This document shows, in pieces, positions 291-49,697 of a stretch of DNA of 64,000 nt. Made by a program: the position numbers and the translations under genes. Below the pieces are notes generated by a model, which saw nothing but the letters and a program-made list of their open reading frames with translations, searched no databases and had not been told where the DNA came from. The DNA is from an uncultured Candidatus Saccharibacteria bacterium (GTDB lineage Bacteria; Patescibacteriota; CALEFQ01). The stretch spans positions 582,410 to 646,409 of the forward strand of contig OZ246404.1 in the NCBI GenBank assembly GCA_965230955.1. Direction: 5' to 3'. Every line of letters starts with the position of its first letter. The first letter of the stretch is position 1.

Positions 291-302
291 GTAATTGTCT
301 AT

Positions 303-373
303 GGTCTTTAGTCTTTAGTCTTTTGTCTTTAGCAATATCGAAATCTAAAGACCAATGACTAAAGACCAAAGAC
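303..373. repeat. Palindromic tandem-heptamer element, GTCTTTG family: GTCTTTAG x4 then loop then inverted CTAAAGAC units; atpF-atpE intercistronic
   Basis: ggtctttagtctttagtcttttgtctttag ... ctaaagaccaatgactaaagaccaaagac; the two arms are reverse complements. Confidence 0.8.
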
Positions 374-2428: not shown

Positions 2429-3610
2429 CTACTCATAGCCGAATTCCAGACAAGCGACAGGCCCGACCCAGCTATCATTATCCGTGATAGTCGTGGCCCA
2501 GAAGAGCAGACCGGAGGCGGAGCCGTCAACTTCAGGCCAGATGAAATCAAACACGGTTGTTTGTTCATCCAGGCCGTCAGTTACCAGAAGCGATTCGTAG
2601 GTGAATTCTGTAGTCCAGTTTGGTGCCCAGTAATAGGCCCCGTAGACATCCAGGAGCAGATACGCCGAAGTTGACTCGGAGGCCATGAAAGGCGGGTTCT
2701 GCGTTTTCACCATTCGGCTGGCGAGGACAAATCGGTCACCGGCATGAAACATGCGCGGCGGAAGGCTTTGTCGACGCGGGAGACCGATAGCGACAGCGTC
2801 TTTCGGGTCAGCCAGAAACTCTAACGTGTAAAGAATCTGACTGCGATAGACTCCCCCACGGTCAATGTTGGTGCCGTCGGGATCAGAATATCCCGGGTCA
2901 CCGCTATCGACGGCAAGAGATCCATAGCCGGGAGCGAAGGTGACAGGGTCCAGCATGGGGTCGGCAATGTTGACGATGTCGGTAGAATCCGGTTCGTAGT
3001 CGCCGTATCCCCGAGGATAGTCAACATTCCAGAAAAGGTTGAACGTCTCCGTTGCAGATCCGTAAATCCCATAAAAGAAATTTACGACGATGCAATTAGT
3101 GACAATCTTTTCGGAACTACCACTCACCCCCATTGAATCTTGACCACTGGTACCGATCAGTGTGCACTGTGACATAGTTCCGCTTGATCCAGAATCAAAC
3201 TTGACACCGTTTTCGTGCACGCCGGAAATAACAACAGAATCAATCAGGACATTACTGGCCTGTACAGGGATATACACCACTCTCTTTGAATTATTCGGAG
3301 CTACAATGTGAAGATTGAGAAGAGAACACCCCGAATGGAGAATAACCGCTGCATCAGTTTGCCCATAGCAAGAAGGCACAGCATATGTTACTGCTGATTC
3401 TTCGAGCCCATCAATCGTAACATTGTCTGGTGAATTCCAAAATCTTGGATCCGTGTAGCAGCCAGGCAAAATTACGACTTTGTCACCGGCGACTGAGGCC
3501 GCCAGTGCGTCAGAAACGTTGGGATAGTCCGTAGGGACTATCAGTTGAGCCGCCTCAACCGAGACGACCGCTGTCAGAATGACAAAGAACACTACTACTA
3601 TCCGTTTCAT
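2429..3610 (-). CDS. Secreted hypothetical protein, probable right-handed beta-helix / pectin-lyase-fold
   Basis: N-terminal signal peptide MKRIVVVFFVILTAVVSVEAA; Gly/Ser/Asn/Asp/Thr-rich repetitive beta-strand-like segments. Confidence 0.45.
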   Translation of the reverse strand: MKRIVVVFFVILTAVVSVEAAQLIVPTDYPNVSDALAASVAGDKVVILPGCYTDPRFWNSPDNVTIDGLEESAVTYAVPSCYGQTDAAVILHSGCSLLNLHIVAPNNSKRVVYIPVQASNVLIDSVVISGVHENGVKFDSGSSGTMSQCTLIGTSGQDSMGVSGSSEKIVTNCIVVNFFYGIYGSATETFNLFWNVDYPRGYGDYEPDSTDIVNIADPMLDPVTFAPGYGSLAVDSGDPGYSDPDGTNIDRGGVYRSQILYTLEFLADPKDAVAIGLPRRQSLPPRMFHAGDRFVLASRMVKTQNPPFMASESTSAYLLLDVYGAYYWAPNWTTEFTYESLLVTDGLDEQTTVFDFIWPEVDGSASGLLFWATTITDNDSWVGPVACLEFGYE

Positions 3611-3683
3611 CTTTTTTCCCTCCTTGGAAAAGACAGTTTATACTAGTTGACATGATACACCAATTCGCCCTTTTTGTCAATAC

Positions 3684-5500: not shown

Positions 5501-6214
5501 TTGGCCGGCGTTTTCGTTTTATCCTCCTGCACAGTTCGCCCGATCAGCGACGATACGATCACGAATACTTTGCCGACGCCAACGACTACCTCCGTCACTG
5601 GAACCGCGACACCATTACCCACCGCCGCCGGTTATACCCCGGCGCAATTCAAAGAATATTTCTTTGAAATCGCGCTCGGCACGGAGTTTTACAGTCAAGC
5701 CGATCGCATCCGCAAATGGAAAGAACCGATGACGCTGGAAATAGGAGGTTTCCCCACCGCCGAAGATATCGCCACCCTGAATAAAATCATCAATGAAATC
5801 AACCAAATCACCGACGGAAGAATGACAATCAATATCGTCACCAGCGGCGGAAATTCCAAAATTTGGTTCGCGCCCCTGGATCAGCTCTCCAACTACGAGC
5901 CGAATTATATCCCGGGCAATTGGGGATTTTTCTATGCCAGCTGGGACGGCAAATTCAATATTTACACTACCAATATCGTCATCGCCTCGGACGAGCCGAC
6001 CCAGACAGAGCGCACCCACCTGATCCGCGAGGAACTGACCCAATCGCTGGGGCTGATGCAGGATTCGTCCAAGTACCCCGACAGTATTTTCTACATCGAA
6101 TGGATTGACGGACAAAACTTTTCCGATCTGGACCGAGCCGTAATTGCCCAGCTCTACGATCCGGCAGTCCGAGCCGGGATGACGCAGGCGGAGCTCGAAA
6201 AAATTATAAAATAA
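5501..6214 (+). CDS. Putative lipoprotein of unknown function; start uncertain (TTG at 5501, or further upstream)
   Basis: Lipobox-like VLSSC near the N-terminus; the upstream in-frame stretch KISTAKIKFKPLFFSLLLAGVFVLSSC looks like a complete signal peptide. Confidence 0.4.
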   Translation: MAGVFVLSSCTVRPISDDTITNTLPTPTTTSVTGTATPLPTAAGYTPAQFKEYFFEIALGTEFYSQADRIRKWKEPMTLEIGGFPTAEDIATLNKIINEINQITDGRMTINIVTSGGNSKIWFAPLDQLSNYEPNYIPGNWGFFYASWDGKFNIYTTNIVIASDEPTQTERTHLIREELTQSLGLMQDSSKYPDSIFYIEWIDGQNFSDLDRAVIAQLYDPAVRAGMTQAELEKIIK

Positions 6215-6316: not shown

Positions 6317-7294
6317 TCAGCAAATCCTCGGCACCAGCTTACCTTCAGGCATGGGCAAAACCCGCTTCCCGAATTTCGTTTCCAAAATCACTCCCCGCCC
6401 GCGCTCCACCCGCCCGATAATGGCGGGCTTTTGTTTTAATCGGCGCAGGGTTTCGAGAACTTTGACAATCTTGTTTTTGGGCACACCGGCAACGAATCTT
6501 CCCTCGCAAGCCATATCATAAACCGAAAAACCCAGGATATCGCACATGGCCCGGACTTCTTTGTGCACCGGGATTTGTTTTTCCAATAAAACAATCTTCA
6601 CCCGAGACTTTTGCGCCATTTCATTTAGCGTGGCGCTGATCCCCCCGCGGGTGGCATCCTTGCAAGCGGTCAAGGATTCCTTGATGGGCGCGATCAAACG
6701 CCAGAGCGGTTGGCAGTCACTTTTAAGTTTGGTCCGGTAATTAAATCGCTTGGCCAAAATCGCCAAAGCATGCTCCCCGATCCCGCCGGAAACAATGATC
6801 AAGTCGCCGACATTGAGTCCGGAGTTATCCACCGGGCAATCCGCGGCGCCTACGCCGCTGGTATTGATCACAACTCCTTTCACCCCGCCTTTTTCCACCA
6901 CTTTGGTGTCGCCGGTGACGACGGCAATTTTTTCCCGGCGCGAAACGGAAGCGATTGAACGCAATATTTTTTTCAGATCTTCTATCGCGAAACCTTCTTC
7001 GATAATAAGCGAAAGGGAAATCCCGAGCGGTTCAGCTCCCATCACCGCCAGATCATTGATCGTACCGCAAATTGCCAGCCGGCCAATATCACCGCCCGGG
7101 AAAAAGAGCGGGTCAACGATATATGAATCCGTCGTGAAAACCAATTTCGCGCCTGGCCAATTTCGATAAGCCGCGTCCTGATCCCGCCCGCGCCAATCAT
7201 TTGATTTCGGCAAAATTTTAAAAATATCACGCAGGAGTCCCTGCATTTCATTACCCCCGCCACCATGACTGAGTTTGACTTTATTATCTTTCAT
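6317..7294 (-). CDS. hypE: Hydrogenase maturation protein HypE (carbamoyl dehydratase, AIR-synthase-related)
   Basis: PurM-like fold; C-terminus ends in the HypE-signature PRIC. Confidence 0.85.
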   Translation of the reverse strand: MKDNKVKLSHGGGGNEMQGLLRDIFKILPKSNDWRGRDQDAAYRNWPGAKLVFTTDSYIVDPLFFPGGDIGRLAICGTINDLAVMGAEPLGISLSLIIEEGFAIEDLKKILRSIASVSRREKIAVVTGDTKVVEKGGVKGVVINTSGVGAADCPVDNSGLNVGDLIIVSGGIGEHALAILAKRFNYRTKLKSDCQPLWRLIAPIKESLTACKDATRGGISATLNEMAQKSRVKIVLLEKQIPVHKEVRAMCDILGFSVYDMACEGRFVAGVPKNKIVKVLETLRRLKQKPAIIGRVERGRGVILETKFGKRVLPMPEGKLVPRIC

Positions 7295-7404
7295 GAATTT
7301 AAGAGTTTACCCGCCAGCGCCTGATTGGACCGACAAATATTTAGCAAAATCGCGGCCCATATTTTTCACGGTCGTATCTAAAAAATCTAAATACGTAGGC
7401 GCAG

Positions 7405-8121
7405 TCAAAACAACACTCTGCTTGACCAAGCCTTGGCCGCGACCGCATCAACCTCGAGCTTGAGACGAATTTTTATCAGGGGCTGGATCGCTCCCGATAC
7501 CACTTTTTCCACCGAGATGTAGTCATCTGGCCGAAGAATCTTAAGAAATTTTTCCAAGGACTGGGCCACAAAATCTTGCGGCTCCGAAAAATATTCCGCC
7601 AGGCAAGAAATTACTTTCGGACGATCGTTTTTTGGAATAGCCGAACGGTACAAATCGAGAATCTCCGGCTGATTCCGAGCTAAGTTCAGATCAACACCGC
7701 CCTCGATGAAATTGTGAGCCAAAACAGCGCAGACCTCGTCCGGTTTCCGCTCGAGCAATTCAGCCACTCCCGGGACAAGTTTCAAGCCCAGTCGGTAAGC
7801 ATAACCAGACTGGTGGTTATCACTATAGAAATCAGCTCCGTGATTAACTTGACTATGCAACACCAAACCTAAAGCGAGGGGTAATAATTCTGGATATTTA
7901 TCCGCGACAAAAGAATAAAAACGATCGGGATTATTATGTAATAAATCTCGTGAAAGCTTCTCGCCCGAGGCGGTGGATATGTCCGGTAAAATACCGCCTA
8001 AAACTAAGTAGGGATTTTCACTTCCGGTAAGCTTATTGTTTATGTAAGTATGGGCAAGAGGAAGCATATGATAATTATTTACTATATTTATCTTCAATAA
8101 TATTTCGGTGATGCTGGGCAT
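7405..8121 (-). CDS. Hypothetical protein
   Basis: 238 aa, no recognisable motif; sits between hypE and hypD. Confidence 0.3.
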   Translation of the reverse strand: MPSITEILLKINIVNNYHMLPLAHTYINNKLTGSENPYLVLGGILPDISTASGEKLSRDLLHNNPDRFYSFVADKYPELLPLALGLVLHSQVNHGADFYSDNHQSGYAYRLGLKLVPGVAELLERKPDEVCAVLAHNFIEGGVDLNLARNQPEILDLYRSAIPKNDRPKVISCLAEYFSEPQDFVAQSLEKFLKILRPDDYISVEKVVSGAIQPLIKIRLKLEVDAVAAKAWSSRVLF

Positions 8122-8353
8122 TAGTGAAACCGAAGAGTTCCCTACTTTTTTGATCGCTTTTCTTTTTCATCTCCGGCGTCATCTCCTGCCAATTGGCCCA
8201 AATTCGTTCTTGCTCGGTCCTATCCGGTTCTTCGTGTATCAATTCAATCCCCGTCTCCGCCCGCCACCGATGCACCGGGTCATGTAACAAATAATTAGCT
8301 TTATCAGGATAATTCTTCCTTATCTCTTCTGTATTGTAAGGACGCTGATACAT
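8075..8353 (-). CDS. Small hypothetical protein
   Basis: 92 aa ORF, overlaps the next gene by 47 nt; coding status uncertain. Confidence 0.2.
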   Translation of the reverse strand: MYQRPYNTEEIRKNYPDKANYLLHDPVHRWRAETGIELIHEEPDRTEQERIWANWQEMTPEMKKKSDQKSRELFGFTNAQHHRNIIEDKYSK

Positions 8354-8371
8354 AATATTACTTTTGACTTT

Positions 8372-9418
8372 TTACTTATACTCATATTTTATCCGACACG
8401 CCCCCTCCCGCGACACCATACATGCCCCAATCGGTTTCTCCGGAGTGCAAGCGCACCTAAATAATTTACAATCCTCGGGGGCAATCAGCCCCTTGATCAC
8501 GTCGCCGCAACGGCAACCAGGGGTCTTTAGTCGTTGGTCTTTAGTCTTTAGCCGATAATTAGCAATAATCTTTTTGTACCGAACAGCGGCGTCGAATTTA
8601 GCGTACTTTTTCTTTATCTGCATCCCCGATTTCGGAATTTTTCCCAGTCCGCGCCATTCGCTATCGACCGGCTTGAAAACTTCCGCGATTAATTTCTTCG
8701 CCCGCCGATTACCGTTCGGTTTCACTAGCCGGCGGTATTCGTTTTCAACTTTTGACTCCCCGCAGGTAATCTGGCGCAAAAGCATAATAACCGCCAGTAA
8801 AATATCCGTCGGTTCAAAGCCCGCGATTACCTGCGGCTTTTTTATCACGCTGTATGGTTTGAGCCCGGTGATGGCCGAAACGTGGCCGGGATTGATGAAA
8901 CCGTCAATCTTGATCTGCTTATCTCGACTTAATGCCAGCATCGCCGGCGGGAAATACTTGTGGGCGGAATAAACCATGAGCCCGTGCTTGATCGCGGATG
9001 CCGTCATCGGCACCGTGGTCTCAAATCCTAGACCGAAAAAAACAACGGCCGGCTCGTCTTTTTTCCATTTCAGCGCTTCTTCGACGGAATAAACGGCTCT
9101 GACCTTGGCACCACTGGCTTTGACTTGCTCCAGACTCATTTCCGAGCCCGGTACGCGCAACACATCACCATAGCACGCGATCGGGATGCCGCTCAAGGCT
9201 AAACCAACCACGGCGTCAATATCGCTCAGCGGGGTGACGCAAACGGGACAGCCCGGGCCGGTCACGAGCTCAATTTTCTTTGGCAAAACCGCGCGCAGAC
9301 CGGAACGCGAAATCGCCTCGGTGTGCGTGCCGCAGACTTCCATGAGGCGGACTGGTTTACGAAGCGTTGCCGCTAATATTTCTATTTCGCGCGTAAGTTG
9401 TAGGGTGGATGATGGCAT
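8372..9418 (-). CDS. hypD: Hydrogenase maturation protein HypD
   Basis: CGTH, GPGCPVC, PGCRCGDV and CxxP...CMVS.EGAC motifs of HypD. Confidence 0.85.
   Translation of the reverse strand: MPSSTLQLTREIEILAATLRKPVRLMEVCGTHTEAISRSGLRAVLPKKIELVTGPGCPVCVTPLSDIDAVVGLALSGIPIACYGDVLRVPGSEMSLEQVKASGAKVRAVYSVEEALKWKKDEPAVVFFGLGFETTVPMTASAIKHGLMVYSAHKYFPPAMLALSRDKQIKIDGFINPGHVSAITGLKPYSVIKKPQVIAGFEPTDILLAVIMLLRQITCGESKVENEYRRLVKPNGNRRAKKLIAEVFKPVDSEWRGLGKIPKSGMQIKKKYAKFDAAVRYKKIIANYRLKTKDQRLKTPGCRCGDVIKGLIAPEDCKLFRCACTPEKPIGACMVSREGACRIKYEYK
8523..8553. repeat. Half-copy of the GTCTTTG-family element lying in-frame inside hypD
   Basis: gtctttagtcgttggtctttagtctttagcc reads on the coding strand as RLKTKDQRLKT, immediately before the conserved PGCRCGDV. 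Confidence 0.6.
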
Positions 9419-9492
9419 GGTCTTTGGTCTTTAGTCTTTGGTCTTTGGCCCAGAAAAAGCCGGCTAAAGACTAAAGACAAAAGACTAACGAC
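9419..9492. repeat. Palindromic tandem-heptamer element (GTCTTTG family), hypD-hypC junction
   Basis: ggtctttggtctttagtctttggtctttggcc ... ggctaaagactaaagacaaaagactaacgac; abuts the hypD ATG. Confidence 0.8.
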
Positions 9493-9697
9493 CCTTAGCA
9501 AAATCCGCCAACGCCGATTTCGCTTCCTTACTATCTAAAACCCCAATAGCAAACCCCGTATGCACCGTAACATAATCCCCGGCCTTGGCCTCCGGCACCA
9601 ATTCCAGGCTCACTTCTTTTTTTAAACCATTAAATGAAACGACCGCGTGGCGGTCGCGATGGAGTGAGATGATTTTACCGGGGATTGCTAAGCACAT
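9485..9697 (-). CDS. hypC: Hydrogenase maturation chaperone HypC
   Basis: Starts MCLAIPGKI, the HypC N-terminal signature; 70 aa. Confidence 0.8.
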   Translation of the reverse strand: MCLAIPGKIISLHRDRHAVVSFNGLKKEVSLELVPEAKAGDYVTVHTGFAIGVLDSKEAKSALADFAKGR

Positions 9698-9721
9698 GAG
9701 AGGTTGGAGCTATAGATTGCC

Positions 9722-9797
9722 AGTCTTTGGTCTTTAGTCTATAGTCTTTGGCCATAAAATATTCAGGCTAAAGACAAAAGACCAACGGCTAAAGACC
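9722..9797. repeat. Palindromic tandem-heptamer element (GTCTTTG family)
   Basis: agtctttggtctttagtctatagtctttggcc ... ggctaaagacaaaagaccaacggctaaagacc. Confidence 0.8.
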
Positions 9798-9800
9798 TTT

Positions 9801-10163
9801 TCAGCAAGTAGTATGAATTAAAGCATTAACTACTTTATTTTCCTTAACCAAATCATTGTACGTACGAACCGCCTGCGGAGTGATCTGGATAATCAAACGC
9901 GGCACGGCGCCTTCCAGTTTGAGGGAAACCTCTTCATCAACTTCCAGCACGCCTTCCTGTCCGGTACCGATCAAAATCACGTCCGGGTTTCCGCTTAGTA
10001 ATTTGGCCGTTTCCCAATCTCCGACCCGGTGGGTGGTCTTAAATAGTTCATGTAATTTTTTGGCGTCGCGCTCCTCCACCTTATCGCCAATAATCAAAAC
10101 CTGGCCGTATTTTTTGCCATTGACGGTGATCGAGCCGAATTCGCAGGAATCGATTATGGGCAT
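9801..10163 (-). CDS. Mth938-like domain protein; true start MPIIDS, the longer ORF N-terminus is repeat read-through
   Basis: About 120 aa, ends ...ALIHTTC as Mth938/DUF498 members do. ATG at 10161-10163 directly abuts the repeat. Confidence 0.45.
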   Translation of the reverse strand: MPIIDSCEFGSITVNGKKYGQVLIIGDKVEERDAKKLHELFKTTHRVGDWETAKLLSGNPDVILIGTGQEGVLEVDEEVSLKLEGAVPRLIIQITPQAVRTYNDLVKENKVVNALIHTTC

Positions 10164-10230
10164 GGTCTTTAGTCTTTGGTCTTTAGTCTTTGGCCACGCT
10201 TTCAGGCTAAAGACCAACGACGAAAGATCT
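10164..10230. repeat. Palindromic tandem-heptamer element (GTCTTTG family)
   Basis: ggtctttagtctttggtctttagtctttggcc ... ggctaaagaccaacgacgaaagatc. Confidence 0.8.
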
Positions 10231-10232
10231 TT

Positions 10233-11072
10233 TTACACCGCACCCTTAATATCCCTAATCTCCGCATACCGAAACACCGGTCCCTCGTCGCAAACCAATT
10301 TCGGCCCGATGCCGCAATGATGGCACTCGCCCACCCCGCACTGCATATGGCGCTCGAGTGAGATATAAATATCTTCGTCTTGAATATCATGTTTATGCAA
10401 GGCCTCGATCACAAATTTGCACATAACCGAAGGACCGACGATAAAAACCAACGGATGACCGACTAATTTCTTATTATCAACCAAGGCGGTGATCAACCCT
10501 TCATCGCAGACGACAGGGCCCTTTTCTCCGCAATGCTTGTCGACCGTCAGTTCAACTTTGATTTTTTTCCGCCACTCTACCAATTCAGTTTTGTATAATA
10601 AATCGGCTTCACTGCGCGCCCCGTAAAAAAGCTGAACTTCTTTAAAATTTTCCGGCCGAGCGATAGCATCCAAAACAATCGCTCGGAGCGGGACAATCCC
10701 TATCCCACCGGCAATAACGAGCAAATTACGATTTTTCAGCAATTTAGTCGGAAATGATCCTTTCCCGAGAGGCCCGCGGATACCGATCATATCACCGGGT
10801 TTTTTCTTGTGCAGTTCCGATGTCAACCGGCCAACCGCCCGCACCCCGATTTCAAAAGTGTCGGTTTTGAAAGAAGACGACGCGATTCCCACCGGCGCTT
10901 CGCCGTAGCCAGCGATTGAAAACATGACGAATTGACCGGGCAGAAAATAAAAATTATTCTGATCGGCCGGATCGGTAAATTGCAAAACAAAAGTCTTCAC
11001 CCGCGGCGCTTCGTCGCGGATTTGAGTTATTTTAGCCGGTTTTGGTTCGTAGTTATTGATCATTGCTTTCAA
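10233..11072 (-). CDS. FAD/NAD-binding plus C-terminal [2Fe-2S] oxidoreductase subunit, sulfhydrogenase gamma (HydG) / AsrB / PyrK-like
   Basis: Ferredoxin-reductase-type fold with C-terminal CGVGECHHCG...C cluster motif; start is TTG at 11072 or ATG at 11063. Confidence 0.65.
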   Translation of the reverse strand: MKAMINNYEPKPAKITQIRDEAPRVKTFVLQFTDPADQNNFYFLPGQFVMFSIAGYGEAPVGIASSSFKTDTFEIGVRAVGRLTSELHKKKPGDMIGIRGPLGKGSFPTKLLKNRNLLVIAGGIGIVPLRAIVLDAIARPENFKEVQLFYGARSEADLLYKTELVEWRKKIKVELTVDKHCGEKGPVVCDEGLITALVDNKKLVGHPLVFIVGPSVMCKFVIEALHKHDIQDEDIYISLERHMQCGVGECHHCGIGPKLVCDEGPVFRYAEIRDIKGAV

Positions 11073-11449
11073 GTAAGAGTCCTTGGTCTTTGGTCGTTAG
11101 TCTTTGGCCCGAGGAGAGATTTAATTAAAGAACTCAGCAAATTTCCAACTTGGTGACACCGGGCTAATTCGTCATCCACCTTCACTTGATACAATTTTTT
11201 CAGCAGATATAAGATAGTCACCGTCTCGTACAAAGATCCTCTGGATATTCTCAGATATCTGATAAATTCCTTGTCGCTATTACTACTTTGCCCCTCCGCG
11301 ACATTGAGCGAGACAGAAGTCACCGCCCGCCGCAATTGAGCTAACAAACCAAATTTCTCGATGGACGGGCACTTTTCCTGGAAGCGGTAGATCGACTCGG
11401 CCAAAAACATAGCCGCTTGCCAAACTCTTAAACGTTCAAACTTGTACAC
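11069..11449 (-). CDS. Four-helix-bundle protein (the family found in 23S rRNA intervening sequences)
   Basis: About 120 aa helical protein with the LRRA..S..LNIAEG and RGSL.E motifs of this family; C-terminal codons (GPKTNDQRPRT) are read from the repeat half-site. Confidence 0.6.
   Translation of the reverse strand: MYKFERLRVWQAAMFLAESIYRFQEKCPSIEKFGLLAQLRRAVTSVSLNVAEGQSSNSDKEFIRYLRISRGSLYETVTILYLLKKLYQVKVDDELARCHQVGNLLSSLIKSLLGPKTNDQRPRTLT
11082..11110. repeat. Left half-site of a GTCTTTG-family element, separated from its partner by the four-helix-bundle gene
   Basis: ggtctttggtcgttagtctttggcc with no adjacent inverted arm. Confidence 0.7.
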
Positions 11450-11471
11450 AATCCCTCCTCTATAATTAATT

Positions 11472-11496
11472 GGCTAAAGACCAAAGACTAAAGACC
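11472..11496. repeat. Right half-site, inverted partner of 11082..11110
   Basis: ggctaaagaccaaagactaaagacc; reverse complement matches the left half. Confidence 0.7.
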
Positions 11497-11507
11497 TTTT
11501 AAAAATA

Positions 11508-12485
11508 CTACTTCCCATCCTTTATCCTCTGAATATTCTTCATAATATCAATCCCCACCGGGCAAACTTTGATGCATCGGCCGCAGCGGACACAACCGGG
11601 GACTTTGTAGCGCGCCGGATCACGGACGAATTTGTGTTCGTACCAGTAGTAAATTCTCTTCTCGGTATCATCTAGAAAACGGTGATCGCCGGCAATTCGG
11701 GAAAAATCCGGAAAGAAACAAGCCGACCATTCCCGTTTGCGGCGCTGTTCGCCGCTTTTGACTTTCGATTGATCGTCGATATTGAAACAATAACAAGTCG
11801 GGCAGGCCAAGGTGCATTTCCCGCAGGCCAAACAGATTTTGCCCAGTTCCGCCCAAAGCGCCTGATTATAACCGCTCTCCATCTTGCCCTTGATCTCAAC
11901 CATCTCGCGATCCATTCCTTCCTCGGAAATCGGACCGGCATATTTGATATGATCATAATTACGATAACCGAATTTTTCCAACAACCGCTGGCCGTCCTCC
12001 GAGCCGGTATAGACCTTGAAATTCGTTCCGGATTTTTCCAGGAAAATATCGAATTCAAAATGCTCCAAAACATTTTCCCGAAAGCGATCCTGAAAAGCGC
12101 CGAATTCCCGCTGATCGGTCGGCGCCATCGATTGACCGATCACAATGGTTTGTCGTTTCCGCTCCTGGTAATAAACATCGGAGGCGAAAACCTGATTATA
12201 CAAATCCAGCGCGCGCAGATCCAAAACAGTCAGGCCAAACAGCACCTGGGGCTTGCCCACTTTTATTTTCTTGAAAACTTCGCCGTGAATATTGAACATC
12301 GTCTCGGTCGCCGGCAGGAAAAACTTGCGCCAGGGATAATACGTCAGTTGGCCGTTCAGCTTCAGCTCTTCCGGATCGCCGATTTTTTGCGCCAAAAAAC
12401 GCCCATCGCTCTCGACCGGGCCGTACACCAGATTGCCTTCTTTGATCAGGAAGGCGGTGAAGTTTTTTAGTTCGGGGATGGTCAT
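11508..12485 (-). CDS. Iron-sulfur subunit with 2x[4Fe-4S], sulfhydrogenase beta (HydB) / AsrA-like
   Basis: CLACGKCTLACPTC and CVRCGRCIKVCPVG ferredoxin-type motifs; 325 aa. Confidence 0.65.
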   Translation of the reverse strand: MTIPELKNFTAFLIKEGNLVYGPVESDGRFLAQKIGDPEELKLNGQLTYYPWRKFFLPATETMFNIHGEVFKKIKVGKPQVLFGLTVLDLRALDLYNQVFASDVYYQERKRQTIVIGQSMAPTDQREFGAFQDRFRENVLEHFEFDIFLEKSGTNFKVYTGSEDGQRLLEKFGYRNYDHIKYAGPISEEGMDREMVEIKGKMESGYNQALWAELGKICLACGKCTLACPTCYCFNIDDQSKVKSGEQRRKREWSACFFPDFSRIAGDHRFLDDTEKRIYYWYEHKFVRDPARYKVPGCVRCGRCIKVCPVGIDIMKNIQRIKDGK

Positions 12486-12488
12486 GAT

Positions 12489-12540
12489 AGTCTTTGGTCT
12501 TTAGTCTTTGGTCTTTGGCTAAAGACTAAAGACTAACGAC
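12489..12540. repeat. Palindromic tandem-heptamer element (GTCTTTG family) with almost no loop
   Basis: agtctttggtctttagtctttggtctttgg|ctaaagactaaagactaacgac; starts 3 nt from the 11508..12485 ATG. Confidence 0.8.
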
Positions 12541-12576
12541 AAAAGGCCTTTCGGGAAAGCGCCAAAACTTACACAT

Positions 12577-19882: not shown

Positions 19883-20542
19883 TTAGGGTAATTTTTTTGA
19901 CACAGCCTCATCAATCGCGTCCAAATTCAAACGGCCTTCGTATTTTTCGCCATTGATATATAGCGTCGGCGTGGCATTGACTCCGGAACGCAGGCCGCCA
20001 TCTTTCTGGCTCGCGACCAAATCCTTATATTTGCCGCTATTCAATTCGTCTTTGAATTTATTCATATCAAGACCCAGCGACTGGGCCAGTTCATTTAGCT
20101 TTTCTGCGGTCAGCGTGTCCTGATTGGCAAAGACTTTCTGAACCATCTCCCAGAACTTTCCCTGGGCGCCGGCGGCTTCGGTCGCCTCGGCGGCTTTTTG
20201 GGCCAGTGGATGGCCGGCAATCGGAAACTGGCGAAAAACAAAACGAACATCGTCCGGATGTTTTTCCAGAAGCTGATCCACGGTTTTCAATTCAAATTGG
20301 GCGCAAGCCGGGCACTGGAAGTCACTGTAAACCACCAAGGTCACGCGGGGATCAGAGGCGCCGCGCGCATGATCCTGATCGCTGATCGGCTCGGCCAAGG
20401 CATTGTCATAACTCGGCTGAATATTCTCACCGGTCGTGTCCGCCGGGCCGCTGGAAAAATAAATTCCCAGCCAAACAACCGCGACAATGGCGGCAATGAC
20501 GAGGACGGGAATGATTATTAATTTTGGTTCTGGTTTGGACAT
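19883..20542 (-). CDS. DsbA-family thiol:disulfide interchange protein
   Basis: N-terminal anchor plus CPAC active site in a thioredoxin fold. Confidence 0.75.
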   Translation of the reverse strand: MSKPEPKLIIIPVLVIAAIVAVVWLGIYFSSGPADTTGENIQPSYDNALAEPISDQDHARGASDPRVTLVVYSDFQCPACAQFELKTVDQLLEKHPDDVRFVFRQFPIAGHPLAQKAAEATEAAGAQGKFWEMVQKVFANQDTLTAEKLNELAQSLGLDMNKFKDELNSGKYKDLVASQKDGGLRSGVNATPTLYINGEKYEGRLNLDAIDEAVSKKLP

Positions 20543-20551
20543 AATTTTTCA

Positions 20552-20604
20552 AGTCTTTGGTCTTTAGCTGTTGGTCTTTGGCTAAAAACCAAAGACTAAA
20601 GACT
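20552..20604. repeat. Palindromic tandem-heptamer element (GTCTTTG family)
   Basis: agtctttggtctttagctgttggtctttgg ctaaaaaccaaagactaaagact; lies about 10 nt from the 19883..20542 ATG. Confidence 0.8.
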
Positions 20605-20842
20605 ATTTTAGAGCTTTATCAATCTCATCTTTATTAAATCCCAAGATCATCTTGGCGCTTTCGCCCTCGCCGATATAAATGACCGGCACCCCCATCTGCC
20701 CGCTGCGCTGGACGGCTTCTTCGGCGTTTTTAGGATCGCTGACGTCTTTTTCTTCGTATTTGGCGCCGATCTGGCTGAAATACTGCTTGGCCATAGTGCA
20801 ATAACCGCACGACGGCGAAGTGTAAATAAGAATCTTTTTCAT
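20603..20842 (-). CDS. Glutaredoxin-like protein
   Basis: 79 aa with CGYC active site near the N-terminus. Confidence 0.7.
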   Translation of the reverse strand: MKKILIYTSPSCGYCTMAKQYFSQIGAKYEEKDVSDPKNAEEAVQRSGQMGVPVIYIGEGESAKMILGFNKDEIDKALK

Positions 20843-24518: not shown

Positions 24519-25071
24519 AAAAAAGTCCCAGCTTATTAAGAGCGGCTTCGAATGTTTCTCCAGCGATAAAAATACCGTGATTTTTAAGCAAAACAACTTG
24601 ATTATGGCCGATATTGCCGGCGACTTGCTCCGCCAAGTCCAGCGTGCCGTAAGGCTGATCGGGCAATAAGCAATTCGGTCCGGCCAGCGCCTCGTAATCG
24701 GTAAAACCGGACAAATGCGCGTGAAAAATAAAATTATACTTCGGGCATTTCTGATAACTCAAAAAATGCGACCGGCATTCCGAACTGGGCGGATACTCTC
24801 CCCGGTAGTAAACGGTATCGCCGTCGGCTTTCAGCACTTTGGAAAAATCGGTCGGTTGCAAATTATCGATATAGGCGCCGGTCCGCTTGATGATACAGCC
24901 GTCAGCCGTCCGTCCGCTGAAATTTCCGCCGTTCAAATCCAGGAAACCCCATTTCTGATAAAAGTCTTTCAGGCTAAAAAGCTGCTGGATAATTTGCTTT
25001 TCGTGTTTATCCGGATGCCAATCGCCTTTCTTGACCGCTTTGAATTTTACGCCGTGATAATCTTCACTCAT
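24460..25071 (-). CDS. Class II aldolase/adducin-family protein (MtnB-like dehydratase or fuculose-phosphate-aldolase-like)
   Basis: Class II aldolase fold with metal-binding His residues (HAHLSG..., KNHG). Confidence 0.6.
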   Translation of the reverse strand: MSEDYHGVKFKAVKKGDWHPDKHEKQIIQQLFSLKDFYQKWGFLDLNGGNFSGRTADGCIIKRTGAYIDNLQPTDFSKVLKADGDTVYYRGEYPPSSECRSHFLSYQKCPKYNFIFHAHLSGFTDYEALAGPNCLLPDQPYGTLDLAEQVAGNIGHNQVVLLKNHGIFIAGETFEAALNKLGLFYDQFGKVKEQIASHGRDFS

Positions 25072-25810
25072 TGGTTTTGATTAAGGCGGTCAACGCAATT
25101 TCAGCCGCTTTTGTTTCTTGATCGACCAAATTGCCTTTCTTGGCCAACGCTTGTTCGGCGTATTTCAAAATGCCGTCTTGGATATCTTTGGCGCCGGAGC
25201 GATTGACGACCAAAAAGACGCAGCCGGCTTTGGCTCCGCGGAGCCGCGAGACCAGCAAGACCGTCGAGCCTTCCATTTCCTGAGCCAAGACTCCCATCTG
25301 CCCCAGCTTTTCTTTACGCTCGAACAGATTGGGCGCGTAAAGTCCGTCCACGGAAACGGTGGTTCCGGTATGAAAAGGCGTCCCGGCCTCAACCGCCGCG
25401 CGCCGCAATTCTTGAAACAAATCAAAATCAGCTACCGCCGGCAAACTTGCCGGAGCGTAAGCAAATGTCGTCCCGTCGCCCCGCACGATGCTATCGGGAA
25501 TGACTAATTGTCCGATCTTAACCGCAGGAAGCAAACTTCCGCAAGACCCGACTCGAACGATTATTTTCACGCCGGTACGAATCATTTCTTCCACCGCAAT
25601 CGCCGCCGATGGCCCGCCGATCCCCGTCGAAACAATGGCCACCGGTTTGCCCCGGTAAATACCGCGCCAACTGACAAATTCCCGGTTCTGAGCCACTTTA
25701 ACCGGACTGTCCAACAATCGAGCTAAGCGAGACACCCTAGCCGGATCGCCGACAACGATAGCGCGCTCGGCTAGATCACCGGTATCACATAATAAATGGG
25801 GTTGTTTCAT
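25064..25810 (-). CDS. PNP/UDP-family nucleoside phosphorylase (purine-nucleoside or MTA phosphorylase type)
   Basis: VVGDPARV phosphate-binding motif and EMEG motif of DeoD-type phosphorylases. Confidence 0.6.
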   Translation of the reverse strand: MKQPHLLCDTGDLAERAIVVGDPARVSRLARLLDSPVKVAQNREFVSWRGIYRGKPVAIVSTGIGGPSAAIAVEEMIRTGVKIIVRVGSCGSLLPAVKIGQLVIPDSIVRGDGTTFAYAPASLPAVADFDLFQELRRAAVEAGTPFHTGTTVSVDGLYAPNLFERKEKLGQMGVLAQEMEGSTVLLVSRLRGAKAGCVFLVVNRSGAKDIQDGILKYAEQALAKKGNLVDQETKAAEIALTALIKTNE

Positions 25811-25814
25811 GATT

Positions 25815-25873
25815 GGTCTTTAGTCTTTGGTCTTTAGTCTTTGGCTAACGACAAACGACCAAAGACAAAAGAC
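25815..25873. repeat. Palindromic tandem-heptamer element (GTCTTTG family)
   Basis: ggtctttagtctttggtctttagtctttgg ctaacgacaaacgaccaaagacaaaagac; starts 4 nt from the 25064..25810 ATG. Confidence 0.8.
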
Positions 25874-28973: not shown

Positions 28974-29858
28974 TCAGCGTAATTTTCGGCGCCTTTCCGC
29001 CGGAAAAACCTCACCGCGCCATCTCTTCAGCTCCTCCAAGTAATCTGAACTGGCACCGCGCGCTTCCGACAAAGAAAAAACTTCCGCCCAAGCCTTGTTT
29101 ATATATAAAAGCTCGGCCTCGCTTAAAACCCGGGCCTTTTCATTTTCCAAAAAAGACAACAACTCATTCGAGGCATCTGCGTTTGATTCTGGATTATTTT
29201 GGGGATGTATTTCTTGCCGCAGTTCATAATTTGTGGTAGCTCGGCGATATAGCTTAATCTTTTCAAATTGACCGGAACGTTCAATCGCCAAAATGCTATC
29301 CCCAAAAGACTGACTAGCCTCACGGTGCATATCCGGCTTGGTGAAACGCGCCACCCCGATCAATTTTTTTTGGAGTTCATATCTTAAAAAAATATCCGCC
29401 AAACTTACTTCAGGGGCTGTTAAAATAACATGGGCTGTCACGCCATATTCCTTTCGGTTCAGGAACGACGCTGTTCCGATTGGTACCTCTGGACGACGCA
29501 TTGTTCCTTCGATAATCATATCACCATGTTGCTCGGCAATTTTTTTGATGCAGCGCTCTACCCAAAAATTAACATCAGACTGAGTTAGATCGGCCGCATC
29601 TCTTTCATTACTCTCGAGAAATTGAGAATAAAATGGGTGATACCCTCTCAAATCGTCGGCATTAACCACCGAGGCCGGCCGGTCAGACAAAGTACTTTGC
29701 AACACCCTGATAAAATGACTCTTACCGGCGCCAGGCTGTCCTCCTAAAATATGAGCCTGGGGTTGATCTTGTCGAATTAGACCATATTCAAATCGGGGCC
29801 AAATTAAATCAGAAAATATTTCGTCTCTTTCTCGGACAGATAAAATATTTTTATCCAT
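28974..29858 (-). CDS. Zeta-toxin family P-loop kinase (PezT / zeta-like toxin)
   Basis: GGQPGAGKS Walker A near the N-terminus, about 290 aa, zeta-toxin topology. Confidence 0.7.
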   Translation of the reverse strand: MDKNILSVRERDEIFSDLIWPRFEYGLIRQDQPQAHILGGQPGAGKSHFIRVLQSTLSDRPASVVNADDLRGYHPFYSQFLESNERDAADLTQSDVNFWVERCIKKIAEQHGDMIIEGTMRRPEVPIGTASFLNRKEYGVTAHVILTAPEVSLADIFLRYELQKKLIGVARFTKPDMHREASQSFGDSILAIERSGQFEKIKLYRRATTNYELRQEIHPQNNPESNADASNELLSFLENEKARVLSEAELLYINKAWAEVFSLSEARGASSDYLEELKRWRGEVFPAERRRKLR

Positions 29859-49299: not shown

Positions 49300-49373
49300 G
49301 CGCCTATAGCTCAATTGGATAGAGCACCGGACTACGAATCCGTCGGTCAGGGGTTCGAATCCCCTTAGGCGCA
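49300..49373 (+). tRNA. tRNA-Arg (anticodon ACG)
   Basis: Cloverleaf folded by hand: acceptor gcgccta/taggcgc, anticodon loop cuACGaa, T-loop ttcgaat; CCA not encoded. Confidence 0.85.
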
Positions 49374-49379
49374 TGAAGA

Positions 49380-49453
49380 GCGGCTATAGCTCAATTGGAT
49401 AGAGCGCTGGACTTCGAATCCAGAGGTCGGGAGTTCGATCCTCCCTAGCCGCA
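49380..49453 (+). tRNA. tRNA-Arg (anticodon TCG)
   Basis: Acceptor gcggcta/tagccgc, anticodon stem ctgga/tccag, loop cuUCGaa. Confidence 0.85.
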
Positions 49454-49461
49454 AACGGAGC

Positions 49462-49535
49462 GCACCTGTAGCTCAGTTGGATAGAGCAGTGGACTTCTAA
49501 TCCACCGGTCGCGGGTTCGAGCCCCGCCAGGTGCA
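49462..49535 (+). tRNA. tRNA-Arg (anticodon TCT)
   Basis: Acceptor gcacctg/caggtgc, anticodon stem gtgga/tccac, loop cuUCUaa. Confidence 0.85.
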
Positions 49536-49544
49536 TGCTACAAC

Positions 49545-49618
49545 GCGGCAGTAGCTCAGTTGGATAGAGTATCAGACTCCGAATCTGAAGGCCGGGGGTT
49601 CAAATCCCCTCTGCCGCA
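49545..49618 (+). tRNA. tRNA-Arg (anticodon CCG)
   Basis: Acceptor gcggcag/ctgccgc, anticodon stem tcaga/tctga, loop cuCCGaa. Confidence 0.85.
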
Positions 49619-49623
49619 TTATC

Positions 49624-49697
49624 GGGCCAGTAGCTCAGATGGATAGAGCACGGGACTCCTAATCCTGAGGCCACGGGTTCGAATCCCGTCTGGCTCA
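49624..49697 (+). tRNA. tRNA-Arg (anticodon CCT)
   Basis: Acceptor gggccag/ctggctc, anticodon stem cggga/tcctg, loop cuCCUaa. Confidence 0.85.

Follow-up and report, generated by a model that had tools for sequence, protein, structure and literature searches.

The locus described here raises the question of why a small gene for a four-helix-bundle protein lies exactly between the two arms of a repeat that elsewhere forms compact hairpins. The gene is located between hydB- and hydG-like genes in a stretch of 64,000 nucleotides (nt) from the genome of an uncultured Candidatus Saccharibacteria bacterium (contig OZ246404.1), hereafter called the window. The explanation considered best is that the locus is a co-transcribed stem-loop cassette of the intervening-sequence (IVS) type, probably cut by RNase III, with the short hairpins as its cargo-less form, and a probability of about 0.6 is assigned to this reading. 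The question brings together three separate puzzles, namely the function of the large "four helix bundle / S23 ribosomal / IVS protein" family, the origin of the IVSs of rRNA, and the hundreds of intergenic heptamers found in bacterial genomes.

The cassette and the cargo-less hairpins of the window

The open reading frame (ORF) of 126 aa (11069-11449, minus strand, GTG start) sits between inverted RGTCTTT heptad arrays 362 nt apart, in agreement with the preliminary description of this DNA, which had split arms enclosing the ORF at a distance of about 360 bp. The repeat finder places the arms at 11085-11109 and 11472-11496, each of 25 nt and 84% complementary. In heptad register the arrays are GTCTTTR x4 at 11079-11106 and YAAAGAC x3 at 11475-11495, and the plus strand reads GTCCTTGGTCTTTGGTCGTTAGTCTTTGGCC at 11079-11109 and GGCTAAAGACCAAAGACTAAAGACC at 11472-11496. 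The right arm is kept as first described, the left arm starts at 11079 and not at 11082, and for the hydG-like gene an ATG at 11063 is a likelier start than the TTG at 11072. All genes of the stretch around the cassette lie on the minus strand, and the TGA stop of the four-helix-bundle ORF is followed by 5 nt and then by the hydG ATG. The arms pair with each other when the whole 441-nt element is folded to its minimum free energy.

The ORF is about 13 codons longer than its close relatives, and about 10-11 of these codons come from the left arm, close to the 11 counted previously. A 1-nt deletion in the window has removed the TAG used by two related loci (L003 and L007), and the window ORF consequently runs on into the arm for 13 codons more. 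The loop leader (11450-11471) is nearly identical in the same two loci. A Shine-Dalgarno (SD)-like tetramer is present within 22 nt upstream of only 8 of the 59 window genes, and the genome seems to use SD pairing very little, which makes the strong GGAGG of the cassette stand out; the cassette SD is also present in L003, L007, L132 and L140.

The ORF matches PF05635 with 98.1 bits (cut-off 33.8, E 4e-28) and TIGR02436 with 100.6 bits (cut-off 24, E 5e-29), which places it in the family known from 23S rRNA IVSs, as first suggested. It is the sole PF05635/TIGR02436 gene in the window, and PF05635 is its only Pfam match. The AlphaFold model has a mean predicted local distance difference test score (pLDDT) of 91.2 and four helices over residues 1-113, with a tail (residues 116-126) that falls below 50 and is predicted to be disordered. 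The best structural match is XCC0516 (2GSC), with a template-modelling (TM) score of 0.83-0.89 and a root-mean-square deviation of 1.5-1.6 Å, followed by BT_0352 (2RLD, TM about 0.7-0.8) and then by the Bordetella phage protein Avd (4DWL, 8UB7), alone and in the ribonucleoprotein of its diversity-generating retroelement (DGR), with TM 0.6-0.78. A profile search returned 37,817 clusters at 50% identity, nearly all of 110-130 aa. The ratio of nonsynonymous to synonymous substitution rates (dN/dS) of the protein, 0.07-0.2, indicates that it is functional and under purifying selection.

Dinucleotide shuffles lead one to expect 0.15 occurrences of the motif GTCTTTRGTC in the window, where 28 are present, and a register-aware scan of the 64 kb finds 18 arrays of 2-5 heptads each. 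These comprise seven compact palindromes, one lone half-array in hypD and the split pair at the four-helix-bundle gene (Table 1), and the 64-kb window thereby holds a tandem heptamer family with a 7-nt unit, an intergenic location and many copies. All complete copies other than the split pair have loops of about 2-18 nt, as expected from the earlier observation that the arms lie close together elsewhere in the window. The 5' arms of the cargo-less hairpins start 0-4 nt past the upstream stop codon, with the exception of about 30 nt at the rhodanese-hydB junction, and the 3' arms mostly end 0-9 nt ahead of the downstream ATG, with distances of 13 nt at 297-373 and 24 nt at the DUF498-hypC junction. 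Folded as RNA, the short hairpins have energies between -22.7 and -34.1 kcal/mol and z-scores between -4.2 and -7.6.

Table 1. Positions of the cassette, its neighbouring genes and the heptad arrays within the window
Feature	Position	Strand	Remarks
5' arm, transcript sense GG-TCTTTAG-TCTTTGG-TCTTTAG-CC, three RGTCTTT heptads	11472-11496	-	starts 11 nt past hydB stop codon (TAG)
Loop leader, 22 nt, AATTAATTATAGAGGAGGGATT	11450-11471	-	consensus Shine-Dalgarno GGAGG, 6 nt from GTG
Four-helix-bundle protein gene, PF05635 / TIGR02436, 126 aa	11069-11449	-	codons 1-113 are the fold; last ~13 codons are read-through into 3' arm
3' arm, transcript sense GGCC-AAAGACT-AACGACC-AAAGACC-AAGGAC, four YAAAGAC heptads	11079-11109	-	ends 15 nt ahead of hydG ATG 11063
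Upstream host gene, HydB/ShyB-like 4Fe-4S subunit (sulfhydrogenase beta-like)	11508-12485	-	by sequence matches
Downstream host gene, HydG/ShyC-like FAD/NAD subunit (sulfhydrogenase gamma-like)	10233-11063	-	by sequence matches
Cargo-less hairpin, rhodanese/SfLAP gene to hydB junction	12489-12548	.	loop 2-4 nt; ends 3 nt ahead of hydB ATG
Cargo-less hairpin, hydG to DUF498 junction	10164-10229	.	abuts DUF498 ATG; junction filled by four-helix-bundle gene in L140
Cargo-less hairpin, DUF498 to hypC junction	9723-9797	.	
Cargo-less hairpin, hypC to hypD junction	9419-9493	.	hypC stop codon inside 5' arm; 3' arm abuts hypD ATG
Cargo-less hairpin, 5 + 4 heptads	297-373	.	most stable of these hairpins, -34.1 kcal/mol
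Cargo-less hairpin	20553-20603	.	9 nt upstream of DsbA-like gene 19883-20542
Cargo-less hairpin, divergent intergenic region	25816-25873	.	4 nt upstream of phosphorylase gene 25064-25810
Lone half-array within hypD (8372-9418, minus strand), in frame, four YAAAGAC heptads	8523-8550	.	encodes LKTKDQRLKT

Such positions also fit a different explanation, in which the hairpins serve host regulation, as stabilisers of mRNA of the kind known from repetitive extragenic palindromes (REPs), as elements of translational coupling or as antisense terminators, and the gene is a separate selfish gene with a preference for the loops, where insertion is safe, just as IVSs are found on the tips of rRNA helices. 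Empty hairpins outnumber filled ones 7 to 1 in the window and they abut start codons, both of which favour this explanation, as does an A-run (AAAAG) seen in transcript sense ahead of most 5' arms (373-384, 9797-9803, 10229-10236, 11496-11506 and 20603-20610). Because the A-run precedes the 5' arms, the palindromes have a T-run on the opposite strand and resemble antisense intrinsic terminators; the A-run is not seen in other lineages. Identity with intrinsic terminators was rejected, as the sense-strand hairpins run into the next start codon and the T-run is antisense only. A scan of the window for terminators and promoters gave nothing above shuffles, with no hairpin picked up by the terminator scan, and an Rfam scan of the window found six tRNAs only, with no rRNA and no other known RNA family.

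The half-array in hypD occupies a variable linker just N-terminal of the HypD C-x-C motif. At the equivalent place, L007 has another heptad array, (AACGCAA)x4 at 6140-6167, and in hairpin-free relatives HypD is 5 residues shorter at the array-bearing linker.

Filled and empty junctions in relatives

The names attached to homologues of HydB place the organism among the Patescibacteria. Gene order in relatives indicates that the cassette at the hydB-hydG junction is an insertion between normally adjacent genes, as had been proposed. L096 (HydB 73% identical) and L097/98 (69%) share the gene order of the window, their hydB and hydG overlap by ATGA, and no heptad arrays or hairpins occur anywhere in their 12 kb. 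L099 (HydB 62% identical) has a hydB-hydG gap of 43 nt without heptads. Closer relatives (L003, L007 and L132-L139, HydB 83-87% identical) carry the armed four-helix-bundle gene at the hydB-hydG junction and hairpins at the same other junctions. The preliminary description had set against its own proposal the case of relatives with the gene at this site and no repeats; these relatives have the gene there together with the repeats. That gene-free relatives are also without any hairpin counts against hairpins of host origin.

A second junction provides the direct comparison. Downstream of hydG, L140 reads TAA-tt-(GTCTAYR)x4-GACC-gaaaaAGGAGGgtc-ATG, followed by a 119-aa homologue and by (YRTAGAC)x4-tct-ATG of DUF498. 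The hydG-DUF498 hairpin is thus filled in L140 and empty in the window, L007 and L132, with identical outer boundaries, which directly supports the suggested picture of a cargo gene in the loop of a hairpin. The cargo sits in different hairpins in different relatives.

The conservation of the hairpins is high relative to their surroundings. Between the window and L003, hydB has 80% nucleotide identity and a synonymous divergence (dS) of 1.44. Between the window and L007, the arms of orthologous hairpins are 93-100% identical, with matches at 56 of 56 positions in the rhodanese-hydB arms and at 65 of 66 in the hypC-hypD hairpin including its loop; two other loops have diverged. With flanking synonymous sites saturated, the orthologous cargo-less hairpins would be under either strong constraint or active homogenisation, and their conservation far above that of synonymous sites supports the cassette reading, as a sign that the arms are maintained, and is also a point in favour of a host function.

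The cassette itself is a mosaic. Window positions 11317-11496 and L003 positions 2575-2760, which cover the arm, the leader with its SD and codons 1-44, are 97.7% identical (dS 0.04), compared with the 80% of hydB, whereas codons 45-110 are 66.7% identical with dN/dS 0.07. Copies in Nostocales have equal synonymous divergence (pS) in both halves of the ORF. An explanation by nucleotide-level or general RNA constraint on the 5' half was dropped for this reason, and the mosaic between the window and L003 is best read as recombination. The number of heptads in the 5' arm is 3 in the window, 4 in L003 and 2 in L007. The GTCTTTR/YAAAGAC unit is replaced by GTCTATR/YATAGAC in L130/L131, in L140 and at most junctions of L132, and this change affects both arms and several junctions together. 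The GTCTATR unit goes with a different type of four-helix-bundle protein (76-77% identity within types, about 60% between them). This co-variation of protein type with heptad type is suggestive only, as it comprises two groups and the HydB and DUF498 trees disagree. On Nostocales plasmids the heptad type moves with the gene into different contexts, which is not what hairpins of host regulation would lead one to expect.

These observations bear on a further alternative, a mobile element acting at the DNA level, of the foldback, REP-RAYT or MITE (miniature inverted-repeat transposable element) kind. Here the arrays would act as terminal repeats that are recognised in the form of a DNA hairpin or cruciform, the protein would bind, copy or regenerate the arrays, and the short hairpins would be non-autonomous derivatives; RNA processing would be compatible with it as a secondary property. 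This alternative is possible though rather doubtful. The presence/absence and filled/empty polymorphism among relatives speaks for it, as do the mosaic with its sign of recombination, the variation of heptad copy number among close relatives, the change of GTCTTTR to GTCTATR in step with gene type, and the concentration of cargo-less hairpins near the four-helix-bundle gene (four of seven within 3 kb, P = 0.003). On the opposite side, the conflict of the host-gene trees and the two groups behind the link of gene type to heptad type reduce its weight. No target-site duplication is visible, and visual inspection of a number of copies showed no direct repeat at their outer boundaries. The window of 64 kb holds no transposase, integrase or reverse transcriptase, and the protein is a helical bundle of 115 aa without a recognisable nuclease, recombinase or polymerase motif.

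The genes that surround the cassette (6317-12485) are HydB-like, HydG-like, DUF498, HypC, HypD and HypE genes. No large or small hydrogenase subunit was detected among window ORFs of at least 100 aa, and the same is true of L096 and L097. The "HydB/HydG" pair may instead be an AsrAB-like or sulfide-dehydrogenase-like module.

Flanking heptads across phyla

The flanks of homologous genes in other lineages show whether the arrangement is general. A one-genome-per-species scan with an alignment of close homologues gave nine loci, drawn from eight named taxonomic groups; almost all of them have inverted tandem repeats around the gene, and the unit differs by lineage. A metagenome scan with a broader alignment added 80 further loci selected by protein similarity alone. 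Arms were scored by the strongest local inverted repeat linking two regions, the 150 nt upstream of the ORF and a stretch that runs from its last 45 nt (stop included) to 150 nt beyond it, and the threshold was the 99th percentile of 1,046 position-shifted controls. The sampled proteins are 34-50% identical to the window protein and represent this part of the PF05635 family.

Significant flanking inverted repeats were found at 71 of the 88 analysable loci, with a period of 7 in 63 of these 71. Of 168 other genes in these loci (at least 100 aa), no more than 4 exceeded the threshold (Fisher p = 2e-41), one of them being the DUF498 gene of L007, which is flanked by two empty hairpins. The bracketing of other gene copies by inverted arms, which had been named as a check, is therefore general in this sample, with L004, L008/9 and L140 as examples. 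The motif excess and this difference exclude chance. A juxtaposition of two unrelated half-repeats around an ordinary small gene, by accident or by assembly error, has a negligible probability: contigs built from short reads are frequently interrupted at these repeats, as L001, L002 and L130 are, yet the same structure recurs in independent assemblies from many samples (L001-L003, L007, L132-L139) and in finished genomes and plasmids. The arms have practical effects of their own, as they cause contig breaks and spurious C-terminal extensions in annotation.

In 48 of 68 elements the arms are preceded by a stop codon on the same strand, at a median distance of 4 nt, and in 46 of 68 they are followed by a same-strand start codon, at a median of 7 nt, so the element is an intercistronic cassette. 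GT is part of the heptad consensus in 50 of 60 loci and AGT in 34, where arm composition predicts 57% and 16% (P = 1e-5 and 4e-13); ACT occurs in only 2 of 60. The unit is typically R-G-T-N-N-N-N, with a lineage-specific sequence; exceptions are G-rich types (GGGGCTT, TAGGGAY) and two loci with the opposite arrangement. The 5' arm has more G than C in 61 loci and the reverse holds in 6. A "polarity" of the arms relative to gene orientation was dropped as an interpretation, as a palindrome reads alike on both strands; the excess of G describes the class of palindrome and serves here solely to characterise the unit.

Two results of this survey bear on hairpins as host devices with the gene as a guest. 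Among the 34 loci with at least 3 kb of sequence outside the element, further same-heptad arrays lie nearby in 11 and none in 23, and the R-G-T anchor common to arms across many phyla is unexpected for a host-specific hairpin. Together with the movement of the heptad type with the gene and the bare junctions of gene-free relatives, they make this explanation unlikely, in spite of the abundance, conservation and position of the empty hairpins.

Finished genomes extend the same arrangement. A tblastn search of plasmids gave matches almost only from cyanobacteria, annotated as "four helix bundle protein" or "S23 ribosomal protein". The Calothrix brevissima copy has GGGTGTA/TACACCC arms, and five Nostocales plasmids encode proteins 76-100% identical, all with AGTCAGR/YCTGACT arms; this unit of arms plus gene is found in at least three gene contexts. 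In Azospirillum an unannotated copy is enclosed by GAGGACR arms. The Xanthomonas citri and X. campestris homologues that were looked up are 82-85% identical to the crystallised XCC0516 (PDB 2GSC) and lie between accB and accC, with the layout TGA, 6 nt, GGGAATC-GGGAGTG-GAGAATC-GGGAATC, gene, CCCATTC-CCCATTC-TCGACTC-CCTATTC-CC, accC ATG. The occurrence of the cassette in culturable bacteria, at Xanthomonas accB-accC and on Nostoc/Calothrix plasmids, makes direct testing possible.

Heptamers of this kind have a literature of their own, in which their origin and function are described as unexplained. Mazel et al. reportedly described the short tandemly repeated repetitive (STRR) heptamers of Calothrix and Nostoc in 1990. 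The window arrays resemble the published families in their tandem 7-nt units, mostly intergenic and often beside start codons at the position of the ribosome binding site, and differ in their sequence, RGTCTTT. The GGGAATC family of Xanthomonas is exactly the heptamer that flanks the XCC0516-type gene. Rehm et al. reported 186 GGGAATC arrays of unexplained origin in X. campestris, among which 70 convergent inverted pairs are formed, with 70-75 such pairs per Xanthomonas genome and GGGGAYT as the Nostoc family; XCC0516, accBC and IVSs are not mentioned there (PMC4692102). TAACTGA heptamers are known from Beggiatoaceae, cyanobacteria and Bacteroidetes, in a paper that mentions neither a four-helix-bundle/S23p gene nor IVSs (PMC4679880). 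A full-text search of the open-access literature found no link of the PF05635 family to heptamer arrays, and the association of the four-helix-bundle family, rRNA IVSs and heptamer repeats is apparently undescribed. In two CRISPR surveys 23S_rRNA_IVP appears among the cas-associated families, one example being a gene that lies between cmr3 and cmr2 (PMC3936711, PMC10910872). The latter arrangement fits an intercistronic insertion, and selfish insertion between cas genes may explain why these genes are scored as CRISPR-associated.

Several loci of the survey have features of their own. L068 carries two four-helix-bundle cassettes in tandem (about 2800-3650), each with AGTCNTG-type heptad arms. 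L093 has a second ORF, of about 120 aa, between the same TGGGTGA-type heptads. Other Patescibacteria homologues, 50% identical to the window protein, lie in tRNA clusters, between tRNA genes in L006 (9850-10438) and adjoining a tRNA gene in L008/L009 (5940-6480), and stable-RNA transcripts are processed anyway. Of the 16 viral contigs in which GTCTTTR x3 occurs, none carries the four-helix-bundle gene. One candidate carrier, L111, was set aside on detailed inspection as an unrelated iteron region. The IMG/VR contigs L117 and L118 contain several complete GTCTTTR palindromes and no four-helix-bundle gene in the stretch examined; they may come from a phage of this host or be Patescibacteria DNA filed wrongly as viral.

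The window also holds five tandem tRNA genes on the plus strand with very short spacers (49300-49697) and a Zeta-toxin family gene (28974-29858; PF06414, E 2e-34) in a stretch of lower G+C (0.44).

Proposed RNA processing, possible DNA-level copying and comparison with known systems

In the proposed mechanism, a PF05635 gene with its own ribosome binding site, enclosed by inverted heptad arrays (RGTCTTT / AAAGACY), occupies the space between the hydB stop and the hydG start. The cassette would be transcribed with the operon, and the arrays would pair into a stem of about 25-30 bp that, by homology with the S23p-encoding 23S rRNA IVSs, would be a substrate for RNase III. The cut would free the four-helix-bundle message, part the flanking host messages and so let the element sit harmlessly in essential transcripts. 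At the base of the stem the stop and start codons lie close together, which may preserve the coupling once given by the ancestral ATGA overlap, and the short hairpins at other operon junctions would be the cargo-less form of the same element. Judged on its own and by analogy with IVSs, co-transcription with cleavage of the stem by RNase III has a slightly better than even chance of being correct.

Several findings weigh against the cassette being explained by RNA processing. Cleavage by RNase III at this locus is an analogy rather than a measurement, and the window, at 64 kb of the genome, contains no RNase III gene. Mismatches in the stems have no excess of sense G:U over A:C (59 vs 78), so the wobble test gave no sign of selection acting on pairing in the sense RNA in particular; the strand symmetry of the mismatch statistics favours an element acting as DNA. 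The co-orientation of the cassettes with neighbouring genes is only modest (74-82% against a 66% baseline, p = 0.02), an enrichment too weak to be accepted as proof of co-transcription, and 17 of the 88 four-helix-bundle genes have no significant arms. RNA processing alone also leaves unexplained the tandem-heptad construction of the arms and the R-G-T-N-N-N-N unit, the concerted change of the unit across arms and loci, the lack of wobble bias and the origin of new copies. The tandem heptads, the R-G-T anchor, the missing wobble bias and the concerted unit change point to a copying or homogenising process at the DNA level, in which the four-helix-bundle protein may be the factor that recognises the heptads. 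In the fold of the window element an anti-SD at the 3' end of the ORF pairs with the SD; sequestration of the SD was rejected as a general mechanism, as this pairing is not conserved in L003/L007.

A broader proposal, offered tentatively and at clearly less than even odds, is that PF05635 proteins are dedicated partners of heptad arrays and that the cassette is the autonomous form of an ancient and very widespread element. If so, the cargo-less copies would include GGGAATC, GTCTTTR and, probably, TAACTGA and the cyanobacterial STRRs, and ORF-bearing rRNA IVSs would be copies that landed in rRNA. A pentameric ring is found in XCC0516, the sole homologue examined for it, and such a ring would recognise one heptad per subunit and set or maintain the heptad sequence of a genome.

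REP/RAYT systems (REPtrons) consist of short palindromes dispersed between genes, with a few gene copies bracketed by inverted palindromes and far more empty copies than gene-bearing ones, and RAYTs are HUH/Y1 transposases. We know of no REPs built from tandem heptads. The likeness to the cassette is one of architecture only: no HUH/Y1 transposase lies between the repeats, the only Pfam match there being PF05635, and the cassette protein is a non-enzymatic-looking helical bundle.

Avd of DGRs has a homologous four-helix-bundle fold, and its genomic setting and flanks differ from those of the cassette. As the Avd pentamer binds RNA in the DGR ribonucleoprotein, a nucleic-acid-binding role is plausible for the cassette protein. 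That the gene is itself a DGR accessory protein or a remnant of one could be argued from the resemblance to Bordetella phage Avd (4DWL, 8UB7; TM 0.67-0.78) and from PF05635 being the commonest family beside DGR reverse transcriptases (PMC10053308). This is effectively refuted for the present locus, where window ORFs of at least 100 aa contain no reverse transcriptase domain, a PDB sequence search gives XCC0516 only and not Avd, and the cassette lies within a housekeeping operon; no template/variable repeat pair was noticed, no search aimed at such pairs having been made. With neither reverse transcriptase nor rRNA in the window, the locus is neither a DGR nor an rRNA IVS.

ORF-bearing 23S rRNA IVSs (Coxiella burnetii, Leptospira, Brucella, Xanthomonas-type S23p) hold a PF05635 protein in the loop, as the cassette does, and also share with it a stem of about 28 bp formed by terminal inverted repeats and an ORF in sense to the host transcript. 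The Coxiella IVS consists of an S23p ORF with three to four GACAGAT heptamers of strain-variable copy number in its stem, and its excision by RNase III, with cleavage at the first heptamer repeat, has been demonstrated (PMC4990558), which lends published support to the mirroring of IVS architecture noted at the outset. These tandem heptamers lie on the 5' side of the stem and vary in number like the cassette arms, and the long stem enclosing the ORF has its counterpart in the paired 25-nt arms of the cassette. The differences concern the setting. IVSs are inserted in a 23S rRNA helix (25 or 45), whereas the cassette is flanked by hydB- and hydG-like genes, its host transcript is a protein-coding operon, and it occupies a stop-start junction, not the tip of an rRNA helix. 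Copies of the same stem without cargo are present at other junctions. The Coxiella IVS ORF is apparently decaying and untranslated, in contrast to the cassette ORF with its perfect SD and signs of purifying selection. On this comparison, the cassette represents an IVS-like element outside rRNA, accompanied by cargo-less copies of itself.

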